A DNA stretch of 64,000 nucleotides from positions 203,592 through 267,591 of the forward strand of contig CAVVFV010000008.1 of NCBI GenBank assembly GCA_963747695.1, written 5' to 3'. Below, in pieces: positions 6,693-63,011 of this stretch. The position numbers and the translations under genes were made by a program. Below the pieces are notes generated by a model. The model did no database searches. It was not told where the DNA came from and saw nothing but the letters and a program-made list of their open reading frames with translations. The DNA is from Candidatus Falkowbacteria bacterium. GTDB taxonomy: Bacteria > Patescibacteriota > Patescibacteriia > Patescibacteriales > WJLG01. Every line of letters starts with the position of its first letter. Position 1 is the stretch's first letter.

Positions 6693-6751
6693 AATTTATT
6701 TGATAGCGGGAGAAAATTTTTTCTTATTAAAAAAGTTTAGTGCTAATCGAA

Positions 6752-6846
6752 ATTGTTATATTGTCATATTGTTATGTTGCTGCGCAACGTTCTGAACAGC
6801 TGAACAATATGTAACAATATAACAATATAACAGTATAGCAATATAG
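6752..6846. repeat. A-family word palindrome (caatata words)
   Basis: attgttatattgtcatattgttatgttgctgcgcaacg ... aacaatatgtaacaatataacaatataacagtatagcaatatag; ends 5 nt before rpsD ATG. Confidence 0.7.
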
Positions 6847-28031: not shown

Positions 28032-30722
28032 ATGGAAACCGCCTATCCCTTAAGTGAAAGAAAATTAGATAAGATTTTTAATCCGAAGACGATTGCCGTC
28101 ATCGGCGCTTCCGACCGCGAAGGCGGCGTGGGCAACGCGCTGATGAAGAATCTGATCGGCAATAATTTCGGCGGCATCGTTTATCCGGTTAATCCGGCGC
28201 GCGAGAGCGTGGCAGGCATCAAAGCTTACCCGAAAGTTTCCGACATTCCCGATAAAATCGATTTGGCGATCATCGCCACTCCGGCGCCTACCGTTACCGC
28301 CATCGTCGAGGAATGCGGCCAGGCCGGAGTTTCCGGAATAATTATTATTTCCTCGGGGTTTGACGAGATCGGCGCCAAGGGCCATAAGATGAGCGAGGAA
28401 ATTTTGTCGACCGCCCGCGAATATGGGATGCGCATCATCGGCCCGAACTGCCTGGGATTTATCCGGCCGTCGATTCATTTGAACGCCAGCTTTGCCAACA
28501 AGATGGCCTTGCCCGGTCATATCGCTTTCATTTCTCAGTCTGGCGCGCTCTGCACGGCCATTCTTGACTGGTCGTTGAAAAATAACGTCGGCTTTTCGCA
28601 ATTCGTTTCCATCGGTTCCAACATCGATATTTCTTTCCATGATCTGATTGATTATTTCGGCGACGATCCGGAAACGGACAGTATTTTGATTTATATGGAA
28701 TCGCTGACCGAGGCGCGGAAATTCATGTCAGCTGCCCGCGCTTTTTCCCGGAAAAAACCGATCGTGGTTTTGAAAGTCGGGCGCACCGAAGCCGGTTCCC
28801 AGGCGGCTAAGTCGCATACCGGCGCGATCACCGGCAACGATTCCGTTTATGACGCGGCTTTCGAGCGCGCGGGAATAATCCGCGTTGATGGCGCTTTGGA
28901 TTTGTTCCACGTGGCCAAGATGCTGGCGATGCAGCAACGTCCGGCGGATAACCGTGTCGCGGTCATTACCAATGCCGGCGGTCCGGGCGCGATTGCCGCC
29001 GACTGGCTGGCTATGAAAGGCGGACGCTTGGCCCAATTATCCCATACCACCGTGGCCGAGCTGAAAAAATTCTTGCCGGCTGCCGCTTCCACAGTCAATC
29101 CGGTGGATATTTTGGGTGATGCCGATCAGCATCGTTACCGGCAAGCGGTGGAATTATGTCTGGCTGATCCGAACGTTGACGCGGCTTTGGTTATTCTGAC
29201 GCCGCAGGAGATGACCAGCCCGACCGATGTCGCCCGACAGATCGTTTCGATAAAAAATAAAACCGGCAAAACTATGTTCGCTTCCTGGATGGGCGGCGAT
29301 GACGTTGCCGAAGGGCGGGTGATTTTGGAAAAAGGGCACATCCCGATTTACCGCACTCCGGAGGAAGCAGTGGATATTTTTATGTATGTTGACAGTTATC
29401 GCCGGCGTTTGGAATTCTTGAAGGAAACTCCGGGGTCGGTGCCTCATGCTTTTCAGCCGAAGACAGAAAAGAATCGTGAGCTGATTGAAAAAGTTATTGC
29501 CGATCATCGCACTGTGATGACCGAAGCCGAAGCCAAGGAAATGATCGCCAATTATGGAATTCCGGTCGCCAAGAACGGTACAGCCAATTCGGCTACTGAA
29601 GCCGGAGCAATCGCTTTCCAGATCGGCTTCCCGGTAGTGATGAAAATTCTCTCGCCGGATATTTTGCATAAAACCGATATCGGCGGCGTGAAGTTGAATA
29701 TCAGTTCGCGCTCCGAAGCGGAAGCGGCCTATCATGAAATTCTGGCCGGCGCGAAAAAAGGCGCACCGAAAGCTAAGATTGATGGCGTCTTTGTCGAGGC
29801 AATGACCAAAAAACGTTATGAGCTGCTGATCGGCTGCAAGAAGGATGAAATTTTCGGCCCGGCGATCGTCTTCGGCATGGGCGGCGTAGCCGTCGAAGTC
29901 TTCCGCGACACGGCGGTCGGCTTGCCGCCTTTGAATATGTCTCTGGCTTTGAAGATGATCCAGGAAACCAAAATTTATAAATTACTGGCAGGCTATCGGG
30001 GCATACCGGGCGTGGATATTGAAGCGATCCAATTCTTGCTTTATAAATTCGCTTATCTGGTCGCTGATTTTCCCGAGATCAAAGAATTGGATATCAATCC
30101 GTTCGCGGTCGATGAGAACGGCGGCGTGGTTTTGGACGCCAAAGTTATTTTGGATGAAAAAGTTTTGGGCGTCAAACATAAGCCCTACGCGCATTTGGTA
30201 ATTTCCCCTTATCCCAAAGAGCTGGAAAAAAATATTGTTTTGAAAAATAAGAAAAAAGTTTTGTTGCGCCCGATCCGTCCGGAAGATGAAAAATTAGAGC
30301 AGGAAATGATCGATAATTTTTCCGCTCGCACCATGCGTGATCGTTTTTTGGGGAGAGTGGCTAAGGTCAATTTGGAGATGCTGCGCGGCTTCACCCAGAT
30401 CGATTATGACCGTGAGATCGCCCTGGTCGGCGTGTTGACGGAGCGCGGCCGGGTGCGTTTTATCGGCGTGGTCAGATTGATCGCCGATCCTTACAATGAA
30501 TCGGCTAGCATGGCGATCGCTATTGCCGATCCCTGGCAAGCGCTTGGTTTAGGCGGCGAGATGGTCGATTATATTTTGGATATCGCCCGCGTCCGCGGCT
30601 TGAAAAAAGTCTGGGCCGAATTTTTTCCATCCAACGAGCGGATGAAAAAGATTTTGACTAAACGGAATTTTACCCTCAAGGAGCGCGGCAAGACGATGAT
30701 CGGGGAATTGGAACTTGGATAA
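28032..30722 (+). CDS. Pat-like protein: ADP-forming acetyl-CoA synthetase (alpha+beta) fused to a C-terminal GNAT acetyltransferase
   Basis: CoA-binding IAVIGASDREGGVG, phosphohistidine loop AAKSHTGAITG, ATP-grasp region, GNAT tail LRPIRPEDE...; 896 aa. Confidence 0.85.
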   Translation: METAYPLSERKLDKIFNPKTIAVIGASDREGGVGNALMKNLIGNNFGGIVYPVNPARESVAGIKAYPKVSDIPDKIDLAIIATPAPTVTAIVEECGQAGVSGIIIISSGFDEIGAKGHKMSEEILSTAREYGMRIIGPNCLGFIRPSIHLNASFANKMALPGHIAFISQSGALCTAILDWSLKNNVGFSQFVSIGSNIDISFHDLIDYFGDDPETDSILIYMESLTEARKFMSAARAFSRKKPIVVLKVGRTEAGSQAAKSHTGAITGNDSVYDAAFERAGIIRVDGALDLFHVAKMLAMQQRPADNRVAVITNAGGPGAIAADWLAMKGGRLAQLSHTTVAELKKFLPAAASTVNPVDILGDADQHRYRQAVELCLADPNVDAALVILTPQEMTSPTDVARQIVSIKNKTGKTMFASWMGGDDVAEGRVILEKGHIPIYRTPEEAVDIFMYVDSYRRRLEFLKETPGSVPHAFQPKTEKNRELIEKVIADHRTVMTEAEAKEMIANYGIPVAKNGTANSATEAGAIAFQIGFPVVMKILSPDILHKTDIGGVKLNISSRSEAEAAYHEILAGAKKGAPKAKIDGVFVEAMTKKRYELLIGCKKDEIFGPAIVFGMGGVAVEVFRDTAVGLPPLNMSLALKMIQETKIYKLLAGYRGIPGVDIEAIQFLLYKFAYLVADFPEIKELDINPFAVDENGGVVLDAKVILDEKVLGVKHKPYAHLVISPYPKELEKNIVLKNKKKVLLRPIRPEDEKLEQEMIDNFSARTMRDRFLGRVAKVNLEMLRGFTQIDYDREIALVGVLTERGRVRFIGVVRLIADPYNESASMAIAIADPWQALGLGGEMVDYILDIARVRGLKKVWAEFFPSNERMKKILTKRNFTLKERGKTMIGELELG

Positions 30723-33001: not shown

Positions 33002-33093
33002 TTGCTATACTGTTATATTGCTATATTGTTAGGCAGCGAGAAAAATTTTTTTGCAAAATAACAATATGACAATATAGCAATATAACAATATGT
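33001..33093. repeat. A-family word palindrome
   Basis: attgctatactgttatattgctatattgtt ... aacaatatgacaatatagcaatataacaatatg; ends 4 nt before murJ ATG. Confidence 0.7.
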
Positions 33094-33097
33094 CAGC

Positions 33098-34771
33098 ATG
33101 ATTAAGAATTTTTTCAACAAACAGATTAATAGCATTACCGTGGCGGCGATCTTGGTCGCTTTGTCTTCGCTATTAAGCCGTTTGCTCGGAGTGTTTCGTG
33201 ATCATATTTTGGCGGGGCAGTTTGGCGCCGGTCCGACGCTCGATGCTTATTATGCCGCGTTCCGCGTTCCCGATCTGGTTTTCAATTTGCTGGTGCTCGG
33301 GGCGCTCTCGGCCGGTTTAATCCCGGTCTTTACCGGTTTGATCAAAGATTTTAAGGGTACGATGACCAACCTTTTCGGCTTGGAAAATACCGAGGCTTGG
33401 CGACTGATCAATAATATTCTGAATTTGATTCTAATCTCGATGGCCGTGCTTTCGGTGTTAGGAATAATTTTTGCCGACCCGATCATCAAAACGCTGATCG
33501 CTCCGGGATTCTCGCCGGCAATGCAGGCCAAGACCGCCGGCTTGAGTCGGATAATGTTCTTATCGCCGATCATCTTGGCCGTCTCCAGTATTTTCAGCGG
33601 CGTCTTGCAGACCTTCAAAAGATTTTTTATCTATTCGCTGGCGCCGATTATGTATAATGTCGGAATTATCTGCGGCGCCTTATTTTTAGTGCCGCTGTGG
33701 GGGATCTATGGTTTGGCCTGGGGCGTAGTTTTCGGCGCCTTGCTGCATATGTTCATCCAATTGCCGGCGGTTTTCACATTAGGTTACAAGTATCGCCCAT
33801 TCCTAAATCTGCGCGATGTCCATCTGCGGAAGATCCTGATGATGATGGTGCCGCGGACTTTGAGCCTGGCGGTTTCTCAATTGAATCTGGTGGTGATCAC
33901 TTTCATCGCTTCCGGGTTGGCTTCCGGCTCGCTGACGGTTTTCAATCTGGCCAATAATCTGCAATATTTTCCCATCGGCATTTTCGGCGTTTCTTTCGCC
34001 ATCGCCGCCTTTCCTTCGCTTTCTTCGGCCGCGGCTGATAATAAAAGATTGGTGCGGAATTTTTCTTGGACCATCAGGCAGATTTTATTTTTTATCGTGC
34101 CGTCGACTATTTTGCTTCTGGTCTTGCGGGCGCAGATCGTCCGCGTCATCCTCGGCTCCGGCCAATTCACTTGGCAGGACACGATGCTGACTTTCAACAC
34201 TTTGGGATTTTTCACCATCAGTCTTTTTGCTCAAGCGACCGCGCCTCTGCTGATCAGAGTCTTTTATGTCCGTGAAGATTCAACTACGCCATTCGTCATC
34301 GGAATAATTTCCGTGGCGGCGGAAAGGATAATCGCGCTCTATCTGGTGAACCGGATGGGCGTCGGCGGATTGGCCTTGGCTTTTTCGCTGGCCAATATTT
34401 TGAATTTTATACTCTTGTGGCTGATGCTCCATATTAAGCTGGGCGATCTGCTGGAAGGTAAGATCTTGGTTTCCGTCTTAAAATTTTCCGTGGCCGGATT
34501 GATCTGCGGTTTTATCGCCCAGGAAATGAAAGGTATCGTCTGGCCTTTTATCGATATGACTAGGTTCTTGGGTGTTTTAGTCCAAGGTTCGGCGGCCGGC
34601 CTTTGCGGTTTGCTTGTTTACGCCCTGTTCTGCTGGCTGCTTAGGAGCGAGGAAATGGCCAGCTTCATCTCCTCGGCCAAGAGCCGCCTTTTGCGGATTA
34701 TGGCGAAAAATCCGCCGGCCTTGCTCCAGTCGATCGACTCGATCGATGACGTGGATAAGAATAGTTTGTAA
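33098..34771 (+). CDS. murJ: lipid II flippase MurJ/MviN
   Basis: LLSRLLGVFRDHILAGQFGAGPTLDAYYAAFRVPDLVFNLLVLGALSAGLIP, 14-TM MOP architecture. Confidence 0.85.
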   Translation: MIKNFFNKQINSITVAAILVALSSLLSRLLGVFRDHILAGQFGAGPTLDAYYAAFRVPDLVFNLLVLGALSAGLIPVFTGLIKDFKGTMTNLFGLENTEAWRLINNILNLILISMAVLSVLGIIFADPIIKTLIAPGFSPAMQAKTAGLSRIMFLSPIILAVSSIFSGVLQTFKRFFIYSLAPIMYNVGIICGALFLVPLWGIYGLAWGVVFGALLHMFIQLPAVFTLGYKYRPFLNLRDVHLRKILMMMVPRTLSLAVSQLNLVVITFIASGLASGSLTVFNLANNLQYFPIGIFGVSFAIAAFPSLSSAAADNKRLVRNFSWTIRQILFFIVPSTILLLVLRAQIVRVILGSGQFTWQDTMLTFNTLGFFTISLFAQATAPLLIRVFYVREDSTTPFVIGIISVAAERIIALYLVNRMGVGGLALAFSLANILNFILLWLMLHIKLGDLLEGKILVSVLKFSVAGLICGFIAQEMKGIVWPFIDMTRFLGVLVQGSAAGLCGLLVYALFCWLLRSEEMASFISSAKSRLLRIMAKNPPALLQSIDSIDDVDKNSL

Positions 34772-34987: not shown

Positions 34988-36773
34988 ATGAAAAATATCA
35001 GAAACTTCTGTATTATCGCCCATATCGACCACGGCAAATCCACTTTTTCCGACCGGCTTTTAGAATTGACCGGTACGATCGAGAAGCGGAAAATGCGCGA
35101 ACAGTTTCTGGATAAATTGGATCTGGAGCGCGAGCGCGGCATCACCATCAAATTGAAACCCGTCACCATGCATTGGGAAGGGTATATTTTGAATCTTATT
35201 GACACGCCCGGGCACGTGGATTTTTCTTATGAAGTTTCCCGGTCGCTCGCGGCCGTCGAAGGTGCAATTCTCTTAATTGACGCCACGCAAGGGATCCAGG
35301 CCCAGACGCTCGCTAATTTATATCTCGCGATGAAAGAGGATCTGACCGTCATTCCGGTGATCAATAAGATCGATCTGCCGGCGGCCGATGTGCCGAAAGT
35401 GAAACAAGAAATAATCCATTTGATGGGCTGCAAGGATGAGGAGATTTTATTGGCTTCAGGAAAAACCGGCGAGGGCGTGGAAAAAGTTTTGCGGGAAGTG
35501 ATCGCCAAAGTTCCGGCCCCGGATCCGTCCCGCGAGGGGAATCCGACGCGGGCGCTGATTTTTGATTCCAATTACGACGAATATAAGGGCGTGGTGGCGC
35601 ATGTCCGGGTGATGGACGGCGCTTTCAAAAAAGGCGACAAGATAAAATTATATAACACTAAAACGGTCAGCGAAGTTTTGGACATTGGTATCTTTAATCC
35701 CGAATACCAACCGACCGGTGACTTGAGTACCGGCGAAGTCGGATATCTGGTTACCAGCTACAAAAATGTTACCGAGTGTGCGGTCGGCGATACGGTCACG
35801 ACCGTGGCGGACTTTGAGAAGATTGAACCGTTGAAAGGCTATGAAAAAGTCAACCCGATGGTTTTTGCCGGAGTTTTTCCTCGCGAGGGCGATGATTTTC
35901 AGGCACTGCGCGAAGCCATGGACCGCTTTAAGTTGAATGACGCCTCGCTTTCTTATGAACCGGAACATTCCGAAGCCTTGGGTTTTGGTTTTCGCTGCGG
36001 CTTCTTGGGATTATTGCATTTGGAAATTTTTCAGGAACGTCTTTCGAGAGAATTCAATCTGGACCTGATCGTTACCGTGCCGTCAGTAGCTTATAAAGTT
36101 TATAAACGGAATGGCGAGGAAGTGATCATCCGCACGCCGCAAAAATTGCCCAATCCGACCGAGATCGATCATGTTGAAGAGCCTTGGGTGGCCCTGGACG
36201 TGGTTGTGCCCAAAGAGTATATCGGCAAAGTTATGGAGTTGGCCGTGGATAAAAAAGGAATTTATAAAAATACCGAATATTTGGACGAGTCGAGAGTGAT
36301 TATGCATTATGATCTGCCGATGGCTTCGATCCTCACTGATTTTTATGATAAGATAAAAAGCGCCAGTTCCGGCTTTGCTTCGATCAATTACGATTTTTTG
36401 GATTATCGGCCGGCCAAAGTCGTCCGCCTGGATATCTTGGTAGCTGAAGAGCCGATTGAAGCATTATCGACGATCGTTTATGAAGATGATGCATTCCGTT
36501 CCGGACGCGCCGTAGTGGAAATTTTGAAAGATACTTTGTCGCGGCAGATGTTCGTCGTCAAATTGCAGGCGGCGGTGCAGGGGAAAGATCATCGCTTCGG
36601 AAAGATTGTCGGCTTTGCGCAAAGATGTTACCGCCAAATTATACGGCGGCGACGTTTCCCGCAAGCGCAAGCTTTTGGAAAAACAAAAAAAGGGCAAGAA
36701 GAAGATGATGGCCGCCGGGCGGGGATCGGTGGAGATACCACCGGAGACGTTCGTGAGGATATTAAAAAAATAA
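34988..36773 (+). CDS. lepA: elongation factor 4 (LepA); frame broken once near the 3' end as assembled
   Basis: G1 [10 protein letters not shown]3 DTPGHVDF. Conserved C-terminus [41 protein letters not shown]...[11 protein letters not shown] is in the +1 frame from the GGGG run 36580-36583 and stops at 36771-36773. The ORF-track tail to 36820 is out-of-frame read-through. Confidence 0.85.
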
Positions 36774-36780
36774 AAAAAAT

Positions 36781-36890
36781 AATCCGAACCCACAAAATAT
36801 CGCGAATACTACGAACATGATAACGAATTGATAAGTTCGGTTCGATAAAAGTTCGCAGTATTAGCGCATATAATTCGTAGTATTCGGATT
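36781..36890. repeat. B-family variant element
   Basis: aatccgaa...cgcgaatactacgaac ... ttcgtagtattcggatt. Confidence 0.6.
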
Positions 36891-37089: not shown

Positions 37090-38870
37090 ATGAATAAGAT
37101 CTGGCAAATCGCGCCCAAAATCCGCGAAGGATTTTTCAAGAAATTTCCCGAATACGACCGGGTGATTTTGCAATTGCTGCATAACCGCGGTTTAAGAGAG
37201 AGCGAGGAGATGGATCTTTTTTTGCACGGACATTTTGAAAATAATTTCAGTCCCTTCTTATTCAATAAGATGGAAGAGGCGATCAATCTGACTATCACTC
37301 ATATCAAAGCGGGTGATAAGATTTGCATTTATGGCGATTACGATGCTGACGGTATGACCGCTTCGGCTCTCTTGGCTGAGGTGTTGGCGACTTTGCGCGC
37401 TGACTGTTTCGTTTATATTCCTGACCGCGGTAGCGAAGGATATGGCTTGCATCGGGAGGCGATCGACAAGGCGATAAAAAAAGGAGCGAAGCTTTTAATA
37501 ACCGTCGACGGCGGCATCCGCAATAAGGGCGAAGTCGAATACGCCCGAGCTCGCGGGCTGGAAACAATCATCACCGATCATCATACCCCGCCGGAGTCTT
37601 CAGCCAATCTGCCCGATTGTCTTGATCGTCAATCCGCACCTCAAAGGAGAAAAATATCCTTTTAAGTTCTTGGCCGGAGTCGGCGTGGCTTTCAAATTTT
37701 CCCAGGCCTTGGTGGAGCGGTCGAAATTGAACGCCGAGCAGAAAAAGAAAATTTTGGAAAAAACTTTGGACTTGGTGGCGATCGGCACCGTGGCCGATTG
37801 CGTCACTTTACTGGGAGAAAACCGGCTGCTTTTAAAAAAAGGACTGGAAATTTTAAACGAGACTAAAAGAGTCGGTTTGAAAGAATTGATGAAGGCGGCC
37901 AAGATCGAGGGCAGGCAGCTGGAGGCTTGGAATATCGGTTTTCAGATCGCGCCCCGGCTTAACGCTTCGAGTCGGATGGGTTCGGCCGGCAATGCCTACA
38001 ATCTGCTTTCGACCAAGGATAAGAATGAGGCGGAAAAAGAAGCGCAATTGCTGAACGATCGCAATCTGCGGCGGCAGAAGGAAACGGAAGAGATCGTCGC
38101 CGAGGTGGAGTTGCAGATCAAAAAGCAGTTCGAAGAAAAAATTATCATCGGCATCTGTCCGGAAAAAGCCAAGCCGTGGAACGAAGGGATCGTCGGTCTG
38201 GTAGCCGGCCGGATTGCCGAAAAATATTATAAGCCGACTTTGATCATTACTAAATCGGAAAAAGGGTTCAAGGGTTCTGGCCGTTCGATCGAAGAATTCA
38301 ATCTATTCAAAGCAATCGAAGAAGCCGGAGATTTGCTGGGCAATCACGGCGGGCATCCGATGGCCGTCGGTTTCAATGCCAGCGAGGCTAACCTTCATCT
38401 TTTCGCCGAAAAGATCAGAAAAATCGCCAAACGAGATTTGGGTCACTTGCAGCTCGAGCCGAAATTGAAGATCGACTGTGAAATCATCCTCGAGGATGCC
38501 AGCCGCGACTTTTTATCGCGAAGTCCAGAGATTGGCGCCGTTCGGCCAGCATAATCCCGAACCGAAATTTTTGAGTGAAAATATCCAGATTAAGGATATG
38601 ATGAAAATGGGGGCGAACGGCCAGCATATTAAATTCCGTTTTGGCCTGCCGATGGCTGCGGGCAGGCGGTCTGGGGGGATCGGCTTTAATCATGCCGAGG
38701 AATGGGCGGATTTCAAGATCGGTGATTTGGTCGACGCGGTTTATACTTTGGACGAGAATGAATTCAACGGCAATACCAGCCTGCAATTCAAATTGATCGA
38801 TCTGAAATTGCACGGCAGCGAGTTGATCAAGAAAGGACATTGGTCGGCGGAGACGGTATATATAGATTGA
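37090..38870 (+). CDS. recJ: single-stranded-DNA-specific exonuclease RecJ; two frame breaks as assembled
   Basis: DHH motifs IYGDYDADGMTAS, ITVDGG, ITDHHTP; DHHA1 GGHPMAVG. Track pieces 37090-37665, 37622-38554 and 38478-38870 join into ~590 aa if one nt is skipped at ~37621 and one T of T5 38510-38514. Confidence 0.85.
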
Positions 38871-39387: not shown

Positions 39388-39531
39388 TCGATTGGTTAAT
39401 TAGTTAATTGGTTGTAAAATATTCAATTTCTCAATATAAAAAAACCGTCAGCCTGTATTGTGCCGATGGTTTTTTATATTGATAAATTATTAACTCTTAA
39501 ACTAATTAACCAATCGACTAGTCAACCAATC
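39379..39531. repeat. word palindrome (taattag words) enclosing a bidirectional terminator
   Basis: Arms gttaattagtcgattggttaattagttaattggttg / aactaattaaccaatcgactagtcaaccaatc; central hairpin aaaaaaaccgtcagc...gccgatggttttt (39438-39476). Confidence 0.65.
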
Positions 39532-40450
39532 ATATTTTTCGATATTCTTGTCCGCCAAGCTCTTGGATATATTCGATTTCTTTTTTCCCCTCCTCGCCTT
39601 TGAACAGATGCTTGAAGCGGGCCTGGATTTTCAGATATTCTTCGACTTTGATCGGAGTTTGAATTTTAGAAACGTTAACGAGCTGGCCGTCGACATATTC
39701 CAGAAGGGGATAAAGGCCGGTTTGCACTGCCAATTTTGCGACTTGCATCGCGTCGGAAGTTTTGATGCCAAAGCCGGGAATGCAGGGTGACATTATCTGG
39801 ATATATCCCGGTCCCTGGGTTTCAATGCCTTTTCTGACTTTGGCGGTAATATCCAAAGGGTAGCCGGCGGTGGATTGGGCGATATATTTTACGCCGTGCG
39901 CTAAGGCGATGGCGAGCATATCTTTTTTGCGTTGGGTTGAACCGATCGAGGCCGAACCGGCCGGAGTCGTCGTAGTGGAAGCGCCGGGCGGCGTGGCGCC
40001 GGAAGCCTGAACGCCGGTATTGGAATAAACTTCCGTATCGTAGCAAATATATAAAATATTTTCGCCCCTTTCCCACATCCCCGAAATCAAGCCAAAGCCG
40101 ATATCAAAAGTCGAGCCGTCGCCTCCCTGGACGATGACCTTGGTATTCCGTAGGTCCGCAATACTTTGCGGACCAGTCGGTTTGCCCGCAAGGTATTGCG
40201 GGCCTACGGATTTTATTTTGAAATTCAAAGCGGCTCGGATGCCGCTCGCGACCGCGGCGGGATTTTCGAACAAAGAATGGATCCAGGGAATTTTCCAGGC
40301 CGATTCCGGGTAAGGAGTGGTGGTCACTTCCAAACAGCCGGTGGCGTTGGCGATAATCACATCCGGGCCCATCGCCCGGGAAGCGGCTATGGCCGCGATC
40401 ATCTGCCCGCAGCCGGCGCAGGCGCGGTGGCCCGGAGCGATTAAGCACAT
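39530..40450 (-). CDS. porB: pyruvate/2-oxoacid:ferredoxin oxidoreductase, beta (TPP-binding) subunit
   Basis: APGHRACAGCG, QGGDGSTFDIGF, CYDTEVYSNTG; the start may lie further upstream (see findings). Confidence 0.85.
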   Translation of the reverse strand: MCLIAPGHRACAGCGQMIAAIAASRAMGPDVIIANATGCLEVTTTPYPESAWKIPWIHSLFENPAAVASGIRAALNFKIKSVGPQYLAGKPTGPQSIADLRNTKVIVQGGDGSTFDIGFGLISGMWERGENILYICYDTEVYSNTGVQASGATPPGASTTTTPAGSASIGSTQRKKDMLAIALAHGVKYIAQSTAGYPLDITAKVRKGIETQGPGYIQIMSPCIPGFGIKTSDAMQVAKLAVQTGLYPLLEYVDGQLVNVSKIQTPIKVEEYLKIQARFKHLFKGEEGKKEIEYIQELGGQEYRKI

Positions 40451-40510
40451 CGCCAGCCTTTTTTTTAGTTGAATCAGGAGATATTTTATTTTGCATAATT
40501 TAATTATGAA

Positions 40511-41901
40511 CTAAAATGTCGGTGATTTACCTGCCGCTAAGATGCCGAGAAAATCATTGTTGATGCATTTTACCACACAGGGTATCGCCGCTAGAATTAT
40601 AATTGGACCGTATATGCATCTCAGCACCTGCTGGTCGATACATTCATACTGGACATAGGCGACTCCTGTCGCTTTGGCTCCGTTAAGATCCGCGGCCAGT
40701 TTGTTAGATCTGTCCGAAGGCCGTTGGTGGCCGCCGTAGACGCAGGTTCCATTTCATGGCAGCTGCCGTTTGTGCGCGCCGGGAATAGGCGTGCCAGGCG
40801 CCGTGACCGTAAATCATTGTGAAAGAAGAGAATTGATCCATCAGATCCGATCACCCTGGCATTGAGCGGAATTGATATTCCAGGCGCTGCCGATAACGTT
40901 GAGGGCGGCGGGAGTTTGCAACGCTTCACAGTTGGTGCAGTTTCCGGCTTCCGTGGTACAGCAGCAAATTTGGCTGATGTCGGCAGGCTGACCGGCGCAC
41001 AAGCTGGCGACAGACGTTTTGAAAAGGTTATTGGGGCAAAGGGATTCCGCACCGAACATTCCTTGAGAGCCGGTAAGCAACGTCTGGGGAGTTTGCCAGG
41101 AGCAGTTGGCGCCAGAAGTGTCTTGCGCCTGCTGGTACCGGAGTTTGGATCGCGGTCGGTTGCAAATTTATCAGCGCCGGATTGACCTGATTAAGGATTA
41201 GATAAGAAGTTAGCACCAGCACCAAACCGGTAATGCTCGCGGTGATCATCGATTTGGCTTCGGTGACATTGGAAGCGTTGCCGCCGGCGGTAATCCACAT
41301 CAGTCCGCCGATCATCAGAACTACCGCAGCGACGATGCCCACAGCGCTGACGGCAAAGGTATAGATCAGTTTGATATAGTTAGCGATCGGCGCGGTGGAA
41401 TTGCCAAAAGTTATCTGCGTGTTCAAAGTGGCCTGACCGCCCGAAAAGGTCGGGATCGGCACCTGCAAAATGAGCGGGGGATACGCTTTAGTCGGAGCGG
41501 GAGCGGAGCAAGCAGCACTTGATGGGCCGGAATTAGTACTCCGCCTGCCAGGTGCAGTTAGGAGGCGTCCATGTTCCTTCGCCTCCGCTGGCGCAGGCAT
41601 CGCACGATGAGGCGCCGCAATCTGATGCATACGCTCCGCTGGCGGTGGTTTTGGCGCCGTCGTTATCGTCGGTGCAAGTGCAGACGCCGGTGGGTTCGCC
41701 AAGGTTCGACCATTGGCAGCCGGCTCTAGCATTGCAAGCTTCGGGCGTTTCTAATATAGCATCCGTACAGTGACCGCCTTCCTGGCCAGGTATCATTGAG
41801 CAGGCGGCTATGGCAAATCTAGCTGTATCCACGAACTGAAAAACAATTATCAAGACAAATGCAAATTTAATAAATTTTTTCATTTTAAAATTTTTAATCA
41901 T
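40511..41901 (-). pseudogene. cysteine-rich exported protein with T4SS-pilin-like two-helix domain, multiply disrupted as assembled
   Basis: Signal peptide MKKFIKFAFVLIIVFQF. Cys-rich N-domain (41533-41901). Two-TM block YIKLIYTFAVSAVGIVAAVVLMIGGLMWITAGGNASNVTEAKSMITASITGLVLVLTSYLILNQVNP (41163-41385). Second Cys-rich region and C-terminal TM. Needs +1 shifts at ~41540 and ~41120-41126, plus 3 in-frame TGA or further shifts. Confidence 0.6.
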
Positions 41902-41910
41902 AAAATTTAT

Positions 41911-42019
41911 ATTGTTATATTGTTGAGTTACAAAAAATTATTTCATTGAAATAAATTTTTTACTAAAAAGCTTAAAATCGTTGCGTAGCAATATAACAAT
42001 ATAGCAATATGACAATATT
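41911..42019. repeat. A-family word palindrome (left arm truncated)
   Basis: attgttatattgtt ... cgttgcgtagcaatataacaatatagcaatatgacaatat. Confidence 0.65.
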
Positions 42020-43228
42020 CTATTTTCCAATAAATTCAACTTCTTTTCCTTTTCTCACAGCTTTATTTATAATAGCTTTAATCATCCCCCGCGTGACGTC
42101 CCGTCCGCCCAGGCCGATGATGAAATTTTTGACTACGGCGTTGATTTTTCCCTGCACTGCCGCTTTAACCTCGATATATAGCGGGCCGGCATAGCCTAAA
42201 GAAACGGCTTTTTCCGCGACTAAAATATTTTTGGCGCCGACTTTTTTTAAGACATTAATGATCGCTTGCTCGGGAAATGGCCGGAAAGTCCGCAACTTCA
42301 AAACGCCGATGCTGCCGCTGGAACCGAAGATGCCGCCGGCCGATCTTTTTTCATCGATCACTTCCTTAATCGTACCGACCACCGAACCCATGGCAACGAT
42401 CACGGTTTTTGCGCGCTCTGAACCGTAATACTCGATTAATCCATTATCAAATTTCAAATTTCTAATTTCCAATTTCGAACTGGTTATCGGAATAGTTTTA
42501 TTATATTTTTCATATTCGGATTTTATTACCTCTAAAGATAAGACGAGATCATCGTGCAGTTCTTGGCGGATTTCCAGATAATCAACCGGAGTAGCGAAAG
42601 CGCCGAACGTCCGCGGATTGGCCGGATCCAGATATGTTCCCGTCTTGGGCTTATAGTCGGGTAAGAATTTTTTGATATCTTTTTCCGAAGGAATACTCAC
42701 TTCTTCGTAAGAATGGGTTAAGACAAAACCGTCGACATTGACCATTACTGGCAAATGTAATTTTTCCGCAATTTTGTAAGCCAAAATATGCTGGGTGACG
42801 GCTTCCTGATGATTTTCGGCAAACAATAAGATCCAGCCGGCATCGCGGATGGTCATCACGTCTTGCGCGTCGTTCCAGATGTTGATTGGCGCGGACACGG
42901 CGCGGTTAGCGCAGGTGATCACGACCGGCAAGCGCATTCCGGCGATGTTGAAGATCACCTCGGTCATCAAAAGCAAGCCTTGCGAACTGGTGGCTGAATA
43001 GGCGCGGACGCCGGTCGCGGCAGCGCCCAAGATTATGGAAGCGGCGGCAAATTCGCTCTCGGCCCGGACATATTCGTAATCAGCCTCGCCGTCAGCTTTG
43101 AAGCGCGCCAAATCTTCCATGATGTGCGTCTGCGGCGTAATCGGATAAGCGGAGACGACCGCGGGCTTGATATTTTTTATGGTTAAGGCAATTGCTCGCG
43201 AGCCTTCGAGGATTTGAGGTTTATTCAT
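42020..43228 (-). CDS. porA: pyruvate/2-oxoacid:ferredoxin oxidoreductase, alpha subunit
   Basis: GSRAIALTIKNIKPAVVSAYPITPQT, RAESEFAAASIILGAAATGVRAYSATSSQGL. Confidence 0.9.
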   Translation of the reverse strand: MNKPQILEGSRAIALTIKNIKPAVVSAYPITPQTHIMEDLARFKADGEADYEYVRAESEFAAASIILGAAATGVRAYSATSSQGLLLMTEVIFNIAGMRLPVVITCANRAVSAPINIWNDAQDVMTIRDAGWILLFAENHQEAVTQHILAYKIAEKLHLPVMVNVDGFVLTHSYEEVSIPSEKDIKKFLPDYKPKTGTYLDPANPRTFGAFATPVDYLEIRQELHDDLVLSLEVIKSEYEKYNKTIPITSSKLEIRNLKFDNGLIEYYGSERAKTVIVAMGSVVGTIKEVIDEKRSAGGIFGSSGSIGVLKLRTFRPFPEQAIINVLKKVGAKNILVAEKAVSLGYAGPLYIEVKAAVQGKINAVVKNFIIGLGGRDVTRGMIKAIINKAVRKGKEVEFIGK

Positions 43229-43328
43229 ATATTGCTATATTGTCATATTGTTATATTGTAGCGCTACGTTTTTACAACTTTTCTACATTTTCTCGTTGCG
43301 TAGCAATATAACAATATAGCAATATGAC
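43229..43328. repeat. A-family word palindrome (intercistronic porD-porA)
   Basis: atattgctatattgtcatattgttatattgtagcgc ... cgttgcgtagcaatataacaatatagcaatatgac. Confidence 0.75.
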
Positions 43329-43330
43329 AT

Positions 43331-43597
43331 TTACTTCTTTTCCAGTTCCATCTTAATCACCTTGACCGGGCACTCGGAGGCGCAGACGCCGCAGCCTTTA
43401 CAGAAATCGTAATCGGTTTGCGGCTTGGGTTTGCTTTCCGGCTGATCAACCATCTTGATGCAGTTTTCCGGACAGACGCGGGCGCAGGTGGCGCAGGAAA
43501 TACAATGCTCCAGATCGGTCTTCGGGCGGAAAGTGCGCCAACCGCCCGTATGGTTGGTAATGGTTGAACCTGGTTGAACAGTAATATCGATAGACAT
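43331..43597 (-). CDS. porD: pyruvate:ferredoxin oxidoreductase delta subunit (2x[4Fe-4S] ferredoxin)
   Basis: CISCATCARVCP and CKGCGVCASECP cluster motifs; 88 aa. Confidence 0.85.
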   Translation of the reverse strand: MSIDITVQPGSTITNHTGGWRTFRPKTDLEHCISCATCARVCPENCIKMVDQPESKPKPQTDYDFCKGCGVCASECPVKVIKMELEKK

Positions 43598-43620: not shown

Positions 43621-43694
43621 TAATGATTAATGATAGATGATAAATGATAAATTTTGATTAATTTTTTAATCTATCATTAATCATTTATCATTTA
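43621..43694. repeat. word palindrome, tgataaatga words (intercistronic porG-porD)
   Basis: taatgattaatgatagatgataaatgataaa ... taatctatcattaatcatttatcattt. Confidence 0.65.
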
Positions 43695-44254
43695 GTATCG
43701 TACGCTTTTTCGATAGCGGTAATATTTTTTTGGACTATCTCTTCTCCCTTTTCCTCGAACTTCTCGCGGATCGCTTCTTTCAGTCCGTTGATGCTGACTA
43801 AATCTATCGCTTTGGCCAGTACGCCGAGGATGGTGGTGTTGGCCAGATTGCGGCCCAAAATTTCCATGGCGATTTTCGAGGCGTCGACCGCGTAAATATC
43901 GGCGAGCGAAACCGGTTCTTTTTTTGCGCCAAAGGTCAGCTTAAGCTCGGCGGCCGGCTGGGTGGTATTGACTATCACTTTGACGCCCTTGCCACAGTCG
44001 CTGGTCATATCGACTAAACCGATCAAAGTCGGGTCAAGGATGATCAGAATATCCGGGTGATAAACTTGTTCGCGGTTGCGGATGAATTTGTCATCGATGC
44101 GGGCGAAGGCTTGGATCGGCGCGCCGGTCCGTTCCACGCCGAAAGAAGGGAAGGCCTGCGCTTGGTGGCCGTCGGCATAAGCCGCGATGGCGATTAATTC
44201 GGCGGCGGTGACGACTCCTTGTCCGCCCCGGCCGTGTAATCTGATCTGTTTCAT
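43688..44254 (-). CDS. porG: pyruvate:ferredoxin oxidoreductase gamma subunit
   Basis: IRLHGRGGQGVVTAAELIAIAA ... FPSFGVERTGAPI. Confidence 0.9.
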   Translation of the reverse strand: MKQIRLHGRGGQGVVTAAELIAIAAYADGHQAQAFPSFGVERTGAPIQAFARIDDKFIRNREQVYHPDILIILDPTLIGLVDMTSDCGKGVKVIVNTTQPAAELKLTFGAKKEPVSLADIYAVDASKIAMEILGRNLANTTILGVLAKAIDLVSINGLKEAIREKFEEKGEEIVQKNITAIEKAYDTK

Positions 44255-44260
44255 ATTAAA

Positions 44261-44360
44261 ATATTGTCAGATTGCTATATTGTTATATTGTTGTGAGACG
44301 CAAATTAACGGTTAATTTTTTTTCGTTGCGCGACAATATAACAATATGTCAATATAGCAA
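44261..44360. repeat. A-family word palindrome
   Basis: atattgtcagattgctatattgttatattgttg ... cgttgcgcgacaatataacaatatgtcaatatagcaat. Confidence 0.75.
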
Positions 44361-44369
44361 TTCGATTGG

Positions 44370-44993
44370 TTATTTCAAAAACTGCTGAATTATCTGTTCG
44401 AATTTATCTTCCGGGATCTCTCCCTCGATCTTGTAACCGTTGATGAAGAAAGTCGGCGTCCCGATCACTCCCAGGGACTGGCCGTCAGCATAATCGGCCC
44501 TGATGGCGTTCAAATATTTTTGGCTGGTGAAACAATTGGTAAAAACAGTTCGATTGGCGCCGACGGAAACCGCCAGGTCGGGCAGAGAAGATGTCTCAAA
44601 CTGCCCTTGCAGCGCGAACAATTTGTCATGCATCGCCCAAAATAGTCCCTGTTCGCCGGCGCATCTCGCGGCCAGCGCCAGATCAAGCGAATTGTCATGC
44701 AAAGGGAAATCCTTAAAGATAAGCTTAACTGAATTTTTATATTTAACGCTGATTTCTCTGACGGCGGTATAGTCCTCCTGACAGTAGGGGCAGGCGAAAT
44801 CGGAAAATTCAACGACAGTGACTTTGGGCGTGCTGGTGCCGAAAGAATAATCGGCCGGGCGGTCGGTCACGACGAATTTTGGCGTTGATTGGACCGGACG
44901 ATGCGGGGTGGCGAAATGCGCCACCAGCGCTCCGACCAGAATTATTGCCGCGAAAACGATGACCGTGATGGTTTTTTTGTTCATTTTATTCAT
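44370..44993 (-). CDS. membrane-anchored DsbA-family thiol:disulfide oxidoreductase
   Basis: N-terminal TM; thioredoxin-fold active site FACPYC; GTPTFFING. Confidence 0.8.
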   Translation of the reverse strand: MNKMNKKTITVIVFAAIILVGALVAHFATPHRPVQSTPKFVVTDRPADYSFGTSTPKVTVVEFSDFACPYCQEDYTAVREISVKYKNSVKLIFKDFPLHDNSLDLALAARCAGEQGLFWAMHDKLFALQGQFETSSLPDLAVSVGANRTVFTNCFTSQKYLNAIRADYADGQSLGVIGTPTFFINGYKIEGEIPEDKFEQIIQQFLK

Positions 44994-45206
44994 TGCGGGC
45001 GCTTGGAAAATAAACTATAATATAATTGCTTTTATTATACCATATTATATCTGTATGGCGATAGCTAATCATGATTATTTAGAAGTCCAAGCTTTAAAGA
45101 AAGCCGCCCTGCGCGAGAAGAAGAAAAAGCCGAAGATGAAAGTCAGTGGCGCAAGTGTTAAACATTTACAACGGTTAATTAACGGTAAGTGATTTTTATA
45201 ATTAAA

Positions 45207-45276
45207 ATTGTTATATTGCTAAATTGTCATATTGTTGTGATCTGACTTAGCAATATAACAATATGGCAATATAACA
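45207..45276. repeat. A-family word palindrome
   Basis: attgttatattgctaaattgtcatattgttg ... ttagcaatataacaatatggcaatataacaATG (abuts xth start). Confidence 0.7.
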
Positions 45277-46095
45277 ATGAAATTAATATCTTGGAACGTC
45301 AACGGCATCAGGGCCGCGGTTAAAAAAGGCTTTGTCGATTTTTTGCAAAACGAAAGGCCGGATATCTTGTGTTTGCAGGAAATCAAGATTTCCGATTCAG
45401 CTAAGCGCGAAGAAGTTTTTGATTTTGCCGGTTACCAGGAATTTTGGCATTCGGCCGTCAAGCCGGGGTATGCCGGGACGATGACCTTAGTTAGGGATAA
45501 TTTAATCAGTGAAACGGCCGTAACACACCCCGTCTCGCGAGGCGCGAGCCACCCCTCTCGAGAGGGGAATAAATTTATCGGGCTCGTGGAATTTCCCGAT
45601 GATCCGGAAGGCCGGGTGCAGATTTTGGAATTCGAGAAATTTTATTTGTGCAACATCTATTTTGTCAACGCCCAGCGCGGTTTGACCAGGCTGAAACATA
45701 AAATGGAATGGGAGGATCGCCTGTTGAAGTTCTTGAAAAAATTGGATAAGAAAAAATCGCTGGTCATTTGCGGCGATTATAATGTCGCTCACGAGGAAAT
45801 CGATATCGCCCGTCCCAAAGAGAATAAAAAAAATGCCGGTTTCACCCCGGAGGAGCGGGCCTGGATGACTAAATTTCTTAAAGCCGGTTTCGTCGACGTC
45901 TTCCGTAACCAGCATCCGGACAAGATCCAATATAGTTGGTGGACTTTTTATGCCAATGCCCGGGCCCGCAACATCGGCTGGCGCATTGACTATTTTTGCG
46001 TTTCAGCGTATCTTGTTAAGTCAGTCAAAAGTTCTTTTATAATGGATCAAGTCCAGGGATCGGACCATTGTCCGGTCGGCGTCATTTTAAAATAA
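45277..46095 (+). CDS. xth: exodeoxyribonuclease III with a 17-codon repeat-element insertion
   Basis: SWNVNGIRA, LCLQEIK, EGRV, CGDYNVAH, WRIDYF, GSDHCPV. Confidence 0.9.
   Translation: MKLISWNVNGIRAAVKKGFVDFLQNERPDILCLQEIKISDSAKREEVFDFAGYQEFWHSAVKPGYAGTMTLVRDNLISETAVTHPVSRGASHPSREGNKFIGLVEFPDDPEGRVQILEFEKFYLCNIYFVNAQRGLTRLKHKMEWEDRLLKFLKKLDKKKSLVICGDYNVAHEEIDIARPKENKKNAGFTPEERAWMTKFLKAGFVDVFRNQHPDKIQYSWWTFYANARARNIGWRIDYFCVSAYLVKSVKSSFIMDQVQGSDHCPVGVILK
45520..45570 (+). repeat. K'-type GC-rich element inserted in frame in xth
   Basis: gtaacacaccccgtctcgcgaggcgcgagccacccctctcgagaggggaat; nearly the reverse complement of intergenic 24430-24481. Confidence 0.85.
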
Positions 46096-46958: not shown

Positions 46959-49811
<2,853 letters not shown>

Positions 49812-51659: not shown

Positions 51660-52508
51660 ATGGATTTATTGGAAAGGACAAAGGAGATTTGTAAACTTTA
51701 TGATATCTGGCCTTCGCGCTCCAAGGGACAGAATTTTTTAGTTTCCGAAAGCGTCTATGATAAAATCGTCGCCGCAGCCGGTTTAACCAAGGATGATACG
51801 GTTTTGGAAGTCGGCCCGGGTTTGGGATTCCTGACCGCCGAATTGGCAAAGGCTGCCAAGCAAGTGATCGCTGTCGAGCTTGACGATAAACTCGCTGCTT
51901 ATTTAAAAGATGCTTTACAAGCCAATGAGGTTGATAATGTCGAGGTGGTTAACGAAAATATTTTGGATTTAGATTTTAAAAATATACGAAATACGAAATA
52001 CGAAATACGAAATACTAATTTTAAGATCGTTGCCAACCTTCCTTATAATATAACCTCGGTTTTTCTTAGAAAATTTCTCTCCAATGAGCCGCGTCCGGAA
52101 TCGATGGTTTTGCTGCTGCAGAAAGAAGTGGCCGAGCGCATTTGCGCCCAGCCCGGCGATATGTCTTTGTTGGCTCTGTCGGTGCAATTTTATGCTGAGC
52201 CGGAAATCATCGATTTTGTGCCGAATCATGATTTTTGGCCGGCGCCGAAAGTGGACTCAGCTATCATTAAGATAAAAGTTAAGAGAGAAGAGAGAAGAGA
52301 TGCTGACGAGAAGGATTTCTTCCGTTTGGCGAAGTTCGGGTTTTCGGCACGGCGCAAGATGCTCAAGAATAATCTGGCCGGCGGCTTGCATATCAAGCCA
52401 GCCGAGGCGGAAGCGATCTTGGTCAAAGCCGGTTTTAATCCCAAGATCAGGGCGGAAGATTTAGGGGTCGGGGATTGGGAAAGGATTATCAAATTGTTAT
52501 ATTGTTAA
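51660..52508 (+). CDS. rsmA: 16S rRNA (adenine1518/1519-N6)-dimethyltransferase
   Basis: SKGQNFL, VLEVGPGLGFLT (SAM motif I), ANLPYNITS. Confidence 0.9.
   Translation: MDLLERTKEICKLYDIWPSRSKGQNFLVSESVYDKIVAAAGLTKDDTVLEVGPGLGFLTAELAKAAKQVIAVELDDKLAAYLKDALQANEVDNVEVVNENILDLDFKNIRNTKYEIRNTNFKIVANLPYNITSVFLRKFLSNEPRPESMVLLLQKEVAERICAQPGDMSLLALSVQFYAEPEIIDFVPNHDFWPAPKVDSAIIKIKVKREERRDADEKDFFRLAKFGFSARRKMLKNNLAGGLHIKPAEAEAILVKAGFNPKIRAEDLGVGDWERIIKLLYC
51984..52015 (+). repeat. tandem heptanucleotide repeat (atacgaa x4.6) inside rsmA
   Basis: atacgaaatacgaaatacgaaatacgaaatac read directly; encodes IRNTKYEIRNT. Confidence 0.9.
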
Positions 52509-52580
52509 ATTGCTATATTGTTGCGCAACGAGATATTTTTTTCGTAGCACAACAATATAACAATATAGCAGTATAGCAAT
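52493..52580. repeat. A-family word palindrome overlapping the rsmA 3' end
   Basis: attgttatattgttaaattgctatattgttgcgcaacg ... cgtagcacaacaatataacaatatagcagtatagcaat; the last rsmA codons (LLYC-stop) lie in the left arm. Confidence 0.7.
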
Positions 52581-52650
52581 AAGATGATTATTGTTTTTTT
52601 TCGCCTAAATATGTTATAATTATGGACAAAGAAGATAAGCGGACTTTCGC

Positions 52651-61754: not shown

Positions 61755-61842
61755 TATGACAGCAATTTATACCCCAAAAAGGTATAAAACGCACCTTGAA
61801 AAGTGAGAAGGAAAAAAAGTTTCAATTTAAAAAGGGAGGAAA

Positions 61843-63011
61843 ATGAAAAAGTATTAGTCACTCTGTTGTTGCTGGTCGCTTTCGCGGCCACGTCGTCGGC
61901 GATTGATTTATCAACCTGGCATGTTTTGAATATTCCGGGCACGGGCAGTTTGGGCGGCTCATACATTAAGAAAACCCAGATGGCACGGCATAATTGTCTG
62001 ACGCTGGAATGCTATCGATGCGTCGACCGGAAATTGCGCTAATCGGCAAAATTCCGGTTATGGGCGTTACGGTAAGGGACGTGGATTGGGACAGTCATAA
62101 AAATATTTGGGGTGCGACCAGCAATGGTTTGGTGCGTGTCGGTCTCAATGACACATCCACTTATCTGACCGCGGACGGAATGCCCAGCAATTATCCGTGC
62201 GAACGATCGAGTGCGATTCCGCTAATAATCGTTTAATCATCGGATCGACTGATAACGGTATGGCGATCATCAAACAGGACGCATCCGGCAAGCCCCTTTC
62301 GTTTCAGAATGTTTTTGCCGGGCAGGGTATCCAAAAAGTGGGAACCTATGTCCAGGAAATTTGGGGCGTAAACACGATGCGGGTTTATCATTATGATGGA
62401 TCGAACTGGATCACTTATGACACGGGCAGTTCAACTATCAGATTCCCGTTTGGCGCTTTTGTCGCCAAGAAACGGGAACGCCTATGTCGGAAGCGATAGT
62501 CGCGGTTAACGGTTATATCGCCGTTTTTGATCATCAATCCGGTTTGTGGAGCAAAATTATTCCTGACTCCGGCGTCACCCACGGCTCGACTATTCCCAGT
62601 CTCGTAGTGGACAACCAGAACGCGCTTTGGTTTACGTGTGCGAAATATCTGGTGCGGATTGATTTGACCACGATGAAAAACGAACGGATTCCGCTCGACG
62701 GCAGTGTTGTTCCTTGTCTGAATAACACGATCATGGGGTCAGTTGATCCTGTGCTCGGCCTTACCGACGATGGCAATCTGCTGATTGCGGCCTATGCTGC
62801 GATCGTCGAAGTTAAAAGCTCTAATGCTGTCCTATGGCATCCGACGCTTGCGCCGAAAGTCGCCCGCGGCAGTTTCCAGATCATCGGTCAGATCAACCCC
62901 TTGGGCCGAATGATCAAATCCTTCTCACCGAATTCGGTTTCCGGAGTCAGCTTTACGCTGATCCGGACAGCCGAAGGAATGAAGGCGGTCAAAACGCTTA
63001 TCGCTCGATAA
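61843..63011 (+). pseudogene. exported beta-propeller-like repeat protein, at least 4 frame breaks as assembled
   Basis: ATG 61843 behind SD agggagg; signal peptide MKK-VLVTLLLLVAFAATSSA needs one more A in A5 61846-61850; track pieces 61803-62042, 61994-62236, 62197-62499 and 62484-63011 concatenate; NIWGATSNGLVRV-type blades. Confidence 0.6.

Follow-up and report, generated by a model that had tools for sequence, protein, structure and literature searches.

The locus and its genes

The DNA analysed here, referred to as the window, is a whole stretch of 64,000 nucleotides (nt) from a Candidatus Falkowbacteria bacterium of the Patescibacteriota (assembly GCA_963747695.1, contig CAVVFV010000008.1, positions 203,592 to 267,591 of the forward strand). 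It carries the four subunit genes of a pyruvate:ferredoxin oxidoreductase (PFOR) and, between porA and porB and on the same strand, a cysteine-rich gene of the pilin family of type IV secretion systems (T4SS) whose reading frame is interrupted by small insertions and deletions (indels). We conclude with moderate confidence that this is a modular gene, joining a pilin to a LAS-type peptidase, that is typical of its lineage in the dsbA-por block, and that its indels in the window are more likely errors of the consensus or the assembly than the marks of a pseudogene. The genes and features of the block, from upstream to downstream, are as follows (aa, amino acids; ORF, open reading frame).

44370 to 44993, minus strand: dsbA-like gene for a thiol:disulfide oxidoreductase (Pfam Thioredoxin_4/DSBA), which heads the conserved block
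43688 to 44254, minus strand: porG, PFOR gamma (Pfam POR, 134 bits)
43331 to 43597, minus strand: porD, PFOR delta with 2x[4Fe-4S] (Pfam Fer4 families)
42020 to 43228, minus strand: porA, PFOR alpha, intact (Pfam POR_N and PFOR_II)
41908 to 42029, no strand assigned: inverted repeat, made up of tandem ATATTGNN octamers, within the spacer between porA and the pilin gene
40504 to 41901, minus strand: the whole pilin-LAS peptidase gene as reconstructed, about 460 aa with 25 cysteines, carrying at least 10 small indels
39530 to 40496, minus strand: porB, PFOR beta (assembled ORF 40450 to 39530; correct start codon, ATG at 40496)

In a canonical four-subunit PFOR operon the alpha and beta genes are adjacent. 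The window resembles the canonical porGDAB operon in that no subunit gene is missing and all four keep the canonical order on a single strand, and departs from it in the presence of dsbA in front and of pilin-family genes (one to three) between alpha and beta, an arrangement that is conserved in the clade. The gap of about 1.5 kb on the same strand that an earlier reading, made from the sequence alone, had noticed between porA and porB measures 1,569 nt on the minus strand as assembled, and 1,523 nt when the start of porB is corrected to 40496. The G+C content of the gene in the gap (0.54 to 0.63) is the same as that of the flanking por genes, and there is no compositional anomaly.

Gene order in related Patescibacteria

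Eight distinct loci from related Patescibacteria share the order Exo, dsbA, porG, porD, porA, pilin gene or genes and porB, with all genes on the same strand. Identity of porA to that of the window ranges from 62 to 84% in these syntenic relatives, and is 81% over the full length in L001. The syntenic loci and the genes that they carry between porA and porB are listed below.

L001/L002: two pilin-family genes, of 277 aa and 362 aa
L003/L004/L008: a single pilin-family gene, of 403 aa
L005/L006 (GCA_028707065.1): genes of 433 aa and 373 aa, and in addition an ORF of 142 aa without a Pfam match
L009: a pilin-family gene of 332 aa
L010: a pilin-family gene of 419 aa
L011: a pilin-family gene of 384 aa
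L012: the contig stops within the pilin-family gene

The genes in the gap are complete ORFs in every relative whose contig spans it, and RNase H is mostly found downstream of porB where the contig reaches past that gene. The locus is variable, with one to three pilin-family genes and a C-terminal module that differs among relatives. Since the relatives carry the same family in the same slot and on the same strand, gene order indicates that the pilin-peptidase gene is a resident and lineage-typical member of a dsbA-porG-porD-porA-pilin(s)-porB block, and no insertion. This overturns the view of the sequence-only reading that the gene had been wedged into the operon, as the comparison of synteny, which that reading had itself named beforehand as the refuting test, shows a regular operon member in the relatives. 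The more distant pilin homologues at loci L013 to L020 are not adjacent to por genes, and several of them lie within tandem pilin arrays, in agreement with the arrays that PMC12102498 describes. The public records of L008 and L010 to L013 hold Patescibacteria-like contigs labelled 'Candidatus Nanoarchaeia archaeon', 'uncultured Gammaproteobacteria bacterium' or 'Candidatus Methylomirabilis sp.', labels that are probably due to faulty binning or taxonomy.

The block is very compact in some relatives. The spacing in L011 is dsbA-7-porG-4-porD-50-porA-9-pilin-1-porB (in nt), a 9-nt junction is also present in L001, and junctions of 1 to 17 nt occur in L001, L010 and L011. The distance from dsbA to porG is only 2 to 7 nt in L001 (dsbA at 3993-4625), L010 (7115-7735) and L011 (7090-7751). 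Where the block is most compact, the pilin gene and the por genes probably share a transcript, and in L001, L010 and L011 dsbA, which encodes a periplasmic disulfide oxidoreductase, appears to form one transcription unit with the genes for the cytoplasmic PFOR subunits and the cysteine-rich pilin. Spacers of 90 to 150 nt, AT-rich and carrying repeat elements, separate these genes in the window and in its closest relatives. No terminator-like hairpin was found on the minus strand across the dsbA-por block of the window.

Parts of the pilin-peptidase gene

The reconstructed gene can be divided into five parts, of which the last two overlap.

41803 to 41901, minus strand: signal peptide or N-terminal hydrophobic segment MIKNFKMKKFIKFAFVLIIVFQFVDTARFAIAA, read from the sequence; residues 1-69 are 51% identical to the N-terminus of the intact homologue P0002
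41536 to 41802, minus strand: N-terminal cysteine-rich segment in frame 2, a frame that codon usage backs to about 41560
41139 to 41504, minus strand: VirB2-like pilin core with two transmembrane helices in frame 0, free of lesions (PF18895, 30.1 bits; 81% identical to the homologue P0001)
40860 to 41134, minus strand: cysteine-rich linker (NCSWQ...CCC...NCTNC) in frame 1, with CSW and CCC motifs that are nearly invariant in the family
40504 to 40945, minus strand: LAS-type (hedgehog-N/MepA-like) zinc peptidase module, heavily frame-damaged, recognised by a hidden Markov model (HMM) of the module, by profile and by fold

As assembled, the gap is read in three frames, through the ORFs 41901-41533 (frame 2), 41732-41028 (frame 0) and 41080-40841 (frame 1). 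The first contains the signal peptide and the cysteine-rich domain that had been recognised from the sequence, and the third the further cysteine-rich region, which includes CCCTTEAGNCTNCE. The frame 0 ORF holds the two-helix block FAVSAVGIVAAVVLMIGGLMWITAGGNASNVTEAK...LVLVLTSYLILNQVNP, and its suggested membership of the T4SS pilin family was borne out by the Pfam model T4SS_pilin (PF18895), which gives 30.1 bits for the frame 0 piece, above the curated gathering score of 26.6 bits, and 26.6 bits for the joined reconstruction. The window sequence itself shows a signal or leader segment and, after it, the two hydrophobic helices of a hairpin. The AlphaFold2 (AF2) model of P0002 contains an N-terminal helix at residues 2-32 and helices at 113-151 and 155-181, where the predicted local distance difference test (pLDDT) is only 60-70.

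A search with the frame-joined translation retrieved 39 homologues of 275 to 564 aa, all of Patescibacteria type and most of them annotated with PF18895, the closest being Patescibacteria 'pilin' or T4SS_pilin proteins. The homologues follow a common plan, with a signal or transmembrane segment, a highly conserved pilin core, a variable cysteine-rich linker with CxW and CCC, and a variable C-terminal module. With 17,006 cluster representatives at E<=1e-3 in an exhaustive search, the pilin family is a very large one, and 62 of the 181 members retrieved from it have the LAS-like module. Pfam recognises the C-terminal modules of some homologues as SLT_3, SLT or Peptidase_M15_3, the last of these at 29.7 bits in the relative P0025, but none of those in the group closest to the window. 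The ratio of nonsynonymous to synonymous substitution (dN/dS) is 0.12 to 0.20 in the pilin core and about 0.10 in porA, values that indicate purifying selection on the core. A metagenome scan with the cysteine-rich linker specific to the window found no close relative.

The C-terminal module

The residues H284-x6-D291, E322 and H356-x-H358 (numbering of P0002) are invariant in ten intact homologues. Against the PDB, a profile of the module matches only hedgehog N-terminal domains (E=3e-4), and the alignment passes through TE(A/G)W, HxxGxxxD, YE and HxH, which together correspond to the zinc site of ShhN. The AF2 model of P0002 has a pLDDT of 80-90 over the C-terminal domain, and a Foldseek comparison of this model with the PDB ranks the N-domains of Dhh, Shh and Ihh at the top (E about 5e-5, prob 1.0, TM-score 0.5-0.57), followed by the murein endopeptidase MepA (1u10, E=0.017). 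Profile and predicted fold thus identify the C-terminal module as a putative zinc peptidase of the LAS family.

It has been described that ShhN is kin to the bacterial M15A peptidoglycan peptidases (PMC6027127, PMC8052667). The homologues share with the LAS zinc metallopeptidases (hedgehog-N, M15A DD-peptidases and E. coli MepA) the zinc and catalytic pattern H-x6-D...E...H-x-H, and can be aligned with ShhN at their TE(A/G)W and YE motifs. They differ from the LAS families in that their module is missed by the Pfam models HH_signal and Peptidase_M15, is rich in cysteine and is fused to a pilin, and from ShhN in that the module gives no evidence of its calcium sites; the window copy differs further in having Tyr at the Asp ligand. 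The hedgehog-like LAS module represents a bacterial branch that is absent from current domain libraries. The LAS label does not extend to every pilin embedded among por genes, as a profile comparison left the C-terminal modules of P0009 (L009) and P0033 (L010) unaligned to the LAS module.

The zinc ligands are not intact in the window copy as assembled, where the first His lies in another frame, with a TGA at its place, and H-R-H in yet another. The C-terminal transmembrane segment (IYGPIIILAAIPCVV) that the sequence-only reading had proposed is an artefact of an out-of-frame translation. Codon usage prefers the frame that reads SNYNSSGDTLCG, which aligns to SNYNIPSDNCG of the homologues, and the segment is absent from the intact homologues; the LAS module, part of which was being read out of frame, had been overlooked.

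Frame damage in the gene

The gene had already been described as broken several times, and the damage proved to be more extensive than that. We identified at least 10 indels of one or two bases, about 8 or more of them in the last ~350 nt and none in the 366 nt of the pilin core. A frameshift-aware alignment of six homologous proteins to the DNA gave inconsistent positions for the lesions in the C-terminal module, where identity is only about 30%. The mapping rests instead on the module HMM, on a scan of the reading frame by codon usage, trained on the long ORFs of the window and independent of homologues, and on an explicit repair test.

The upstream part has two net -1 shifts. One lies near 41536-41545, after which frame 2 ends at the TAA at 41535-41533, and the other, around 41123 (GCA[C]AAGAC), leads into the frame 1 linker. 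The path of codon usage agrees with frame 2 up to about 41560, frame 0 at 41516-41150 (the pilin core) and frame 1 at 41132-40860 (the linker). Further downstream it passes briefly through frames 0, 1 and 2 at 40850-40730, continues in frame 1, changes to frame 0 at about 40604-40580 and returns to frame 1.

On the assembled sequence the module HMM yields a single-frame alignment of 29.7 bits. The TGA codons that stand in frame at 40843-40841, 40816-40814 and 40756-40754 are each located in a short out-of-frame island, and at each of them the conserved motif (SDLMDQFSSF, GAW and GSCHE) resumes in a neighbouring frame. Six indel edits between 40850 and 40750 raised the score of the module from 29.7 to 69.7 bits, eliminated all three TGAs and yielded FTVTGAWPPIPGAHNGSCHENGTCV, and two further edits recovered SNYNSSGDTLCG and brought the score to 72.9 bits. 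The end of the gene, which had been placed at 40511, is probably the TAA at 40506-40504, after ...NHRHFSS and 7 nt ahead of the porB ATG at 40496.

Consensus error or pseudogene

Broken reading frames are also found in other genes of the window. Compared with the intact orthologues of L001, LepA (34988-36820) has a +1 shift at 36584 and RecJ (37090-38870) has +1 shifts at 37622 and 38507. In porB, 17 N-terminal residues are cut off by an extra base at about 40441, and the ORF restarts at a fortuitous ATG at 40450; porB of the relatives begins with ...GDVLIAPGHRACAGCG, and one frame of the window gives MQNKISPDSTKKKAGDVL followed by N, while the next frame gives MCLIAPGH. LeuRS is normally an essential gene, and in the LeuRS gene of the window (46959-49811) a -1/+1 pair (about 47745-47800) scrambles around 15 codons of the conserved TTRPDTLFG..LAPEHP motif and flanks the in-frame TAG at 47757 to which it gives rise. 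At 61803-63011 a secreted protein, with a signal peptide and beta-propeller-like repeats, is encoded by a gene that is split over four frames with switches near 62028, 62202 and 62468, and that is a second heavily frame-damaged surface-protein gene in the window.

Because LeuRS is broken, indels occur in compensating pairs and the dN/dS of the pilin core is close to that of porA, we favour errors of the consensus or assembly, plausibly in a strain-variable region, over a genuine pseudogene as the origin of the indels. A real and recent pseudogene is nevertheless a possible, if less probable, explanation. The population would then have lost the pilin-peptidase, with the module decaying by indels and by a change of Asp to Tyr, and with the pilin core as yet undamaged. 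The indels themselves and the three in-frame TGAs are what such a loss would leave, although the breaks in LeuRS, LepA, RecJ and porB of the same contig suggest that it is the consensus itself that is unreliable. The relatives differ in the number of genes and in the C-terminal module and therefore the locus turns over, as a pseudogene would suppose, but the pilin core shows no relaxed constraint. In addition, several of the lesions form compensating pairs that keep the length, which is typical of a muddled consensus of alleles of similar length and not of independent mutations.

Several observations weigh against the reading that we favour, and the first of them are those that a pseudogene accommodates best. 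The last ~350 nt of the gene have a lesion about every 35 nt, a density far higher than the 1 or so per 1-2 kb of the neighbouring genes, and such a local concentration is left unexplained by a uniform error process. The Asp that serves as zinc ligand reads Tyr (TAC) even after the frames have been repaired, which hints at real inactivation. No version of the window gene, broken or intact, is on record from another assembly, and the independent short-read Logan contig L007 (ERR11748453), which is 100% identical over 2,357 bp from dsbA to porD (porG 100% identical, porD an exact match), covers undamaged sequence only and stops at a repeat before the pilin gene. Exact look-ups of porA, porB and the first broken ORF in a gene-position index gave no match, and in a cluster look-up the proteins of the window are recorded only from its own contig of 331,635 bp (NCBI/ENA), with no entry for the broken pilin pieces under the boundaries used. 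As regards the peptidase, Pfam at E<=0.1 matches no C-terminal module in P0001, P0002 or P0007. As regards the pilin, no Pfam domain of the T4SS machinery (VirB4, VirB6 or coupling protein) was detected in the large ORFs of the 64-kb window, so that a link of the gene to a secretion apparatus is hypothetical. Finally, the AT-rich spacers with their repeats make co-transcription less certain in the window than in L010 and L011. For practical purposes, gene-loss calls from this assembly are untrustworthy without the reads.

Intergenic repeats and the insertion alternative

Each arm of the inverted repeat upstream of the pilin gene consists of three to four tandem ATATTGNN octamers, a motif matched 28 times in the window where chance predicts 0. 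The element occurs at seven sites (6750-6844, 33007-33099, 41908-42029, 43221-43325, 44253-44363, 45205-45280 and 52491-52582). Four of the seven are in spacers of the dsbA-por block, namely porA to pilin, porD to porA, dsbA to porG and Exo to dsbA, and the other three are intergenic elsewhere. One copy is also present in the spacer between porD and porA of L001 (5567-5644) and L002, and L007 terminates within one copy. The palindrome that the sequence-only reading saw at the upstream edge of the gene does exist, as the inverted repeat at 41908-42029, but it is a generic intergenic repeat rather than the edge of the pilin gene. It may be an array of operators or promoters, or else a small repetitive element.

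These repeats bear on the alternative that foreign or mobile DNA was inserted once, interrupting a canonical porGDAB operon. The adjacency of the alpha and beta genes in canonical operons and the repeat element at the upstream edge of the gene would fit with such an event, which we nonetheless regard as very unlikely. A recent event is refuted by synteny, as the same family occupies the same slot in eight distinct relatives, down to 62% porA identity; the G+C content of the gene is like that of the flanking por genes; no integrase, transposase or flanking direct repeat accompanies it; and the upstream repeat, present in many copies between genes, marks no boundary. An ancient insertion fixed in the ancestor of the clade is at most what remains of the idea.

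Least probable of all, and hardly credible, is that the breaks are programmed, through recoding of TGA, programmed frameshifting or the phase variation that is frequent among surface proteins. All three in-frame stops of the peptidase module are indeed TGA, but intact ORFs of 1,573, 1,086 and 896 aa have no in-frame TGA under the standard code, so that TGA is a stop in this genome and recoding is ruled out. The motifs are restored by indel edits and not by readthrough, with each TGA in a short island. The lesions fall in homopolymer runs no longer than 2-4 bases, which is insufficient for slipped-strand switching, and at least 10 shifts in one gene would be unprecedented for a programmed mechanism.

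Proposed function and relation to known systems

Patescibacteria depend on host bacteria. Pilins of the VirB2 type form a helical hairpin on insertion into the membrane, and both of their termini then lie outside the cell. The likely function of the lineage-typical pilin-peptidase is that of an extracellular peptidoglycan peptidase anchored to the membrane or to a pilus, in other words a VirB2-like pilin carrying a VirB1-like activity. The pilin hairpin would anchor the protein in the membrane or enter a T4SS-type pilus. Because VirB2-type hairpins have both ends outside, the N- and C-terminal parts, with the cysteine-rich segments and the LAS module, are predicted to be extracytoplasmic. The co-encoded DsbA may oxidise the many cysteines of the protein. 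The 25 cysteines, together with the position of dsbA at the opening of the block and at 2-7 nt from porG in three relatives, suggest that oxidative folding is part of the reason why the dsbA, por and pilin genes stay together. The LAS module would most likely cleave peptide bonds of peptidoglycan, and its target might be the cell's own wall, letting a pilus or secretion apparatus through as VirB1 does, or the wall of the host bacterium.

Passages of a published study (PMC12102498) report a pilin gene near virB4 in 1,135 of 1,948 Patescibacteria assemblies, note that VirB1 is missing from most of the Patescibacteria genomes that have VirB2-like pilins, and name the T4SS and the pilin arrays as part of the small set of systems whose necessity for the epibiotic growth of these bacteria has been shown. 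The gene described here is similar to the VirB2-like pilins (PF18895) of those passages in having a signal peptide and then a hydrophobic hairpin of two helices with a conserved MWITAGGN core. It is also similar to the pilin arrays reported there, whose paralogues are highly variable and often side by side, in that two to three copies are present in L001 and L005. The difference from the pilins in these parts of PMC12102498 is one of location, since here the gene is inside the dsbA-por block, with no T4SS genes in the 64 kb. Compared with plain pilins, the proteins of the por locus are 3-5 times longer and many have a C-terminal cell-wall hydrolase module. The searched passages of PMC12102498 make no mention of pilin-hydrolase fusions or of a location among por genes.

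The T4SS hydrolases VirB1, TraG of pIP501 and PrgK of pCF10, as treated in the same passages (PMC12102498), offer a parallel, as in them too a wall-cutting enzyme is tied to a T4SS component. Other members of the pilin family carry SLT or SLT_3 lysozyme-like modules, which belong to the activity class of VirB1. In the systems of those passages, however, the hydrolase is a separate protein with a lytic transglycosylase or CHAP activity, whereas here it is a predicted metallopeptidase fused to the pilin. Fusions of a pilin with an LAS or SLT module could take over the role of VirB1 or attack the wall of the host, and as a large subfamily they provide a testable answer to the question of how the wall is breached. 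The conserved placement in the dsbA-por block is an uncommon instance of a surface-appendage gene inside an operon of central metabolism, and gives a simple handle for expression studies.

A broader proposal, which we put forward only as a doubtful one, is that in Patescibacteria a widespread class of VirB2-like pilins with their own wall-cutter, either a hedgehog-type LAS module or an SLT lysozyme, provides the activity of VirB1, a protein that seems to be missing from most of these genomes, and that one clade couples it to pyruvate fermentation through transcription of the dsbA-PFOR operon. If this were true, an appendage that pierces the wall or attacks that of the host would be deployed, in this clade, in step with the core metabolism that ferments pyruvate.

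Two genes for acetyl-CoA synthetases are located at a distance of 10-15 kb from the PFOR genes. One is AMP-forming (24796-26733), and the other, of 896 aa (28032-30722), is ADP-forming and fused to a GNAT acetyltransferase domain; both fit a fermentative core that converts pyruvate to acetate. The window also encodes, at 1025-1984, a separate protein of 319 aa with an SLT lytic transglycosylase domain, which is unlinked to the pilin gene and is another candidate wall-cutting enzyme.

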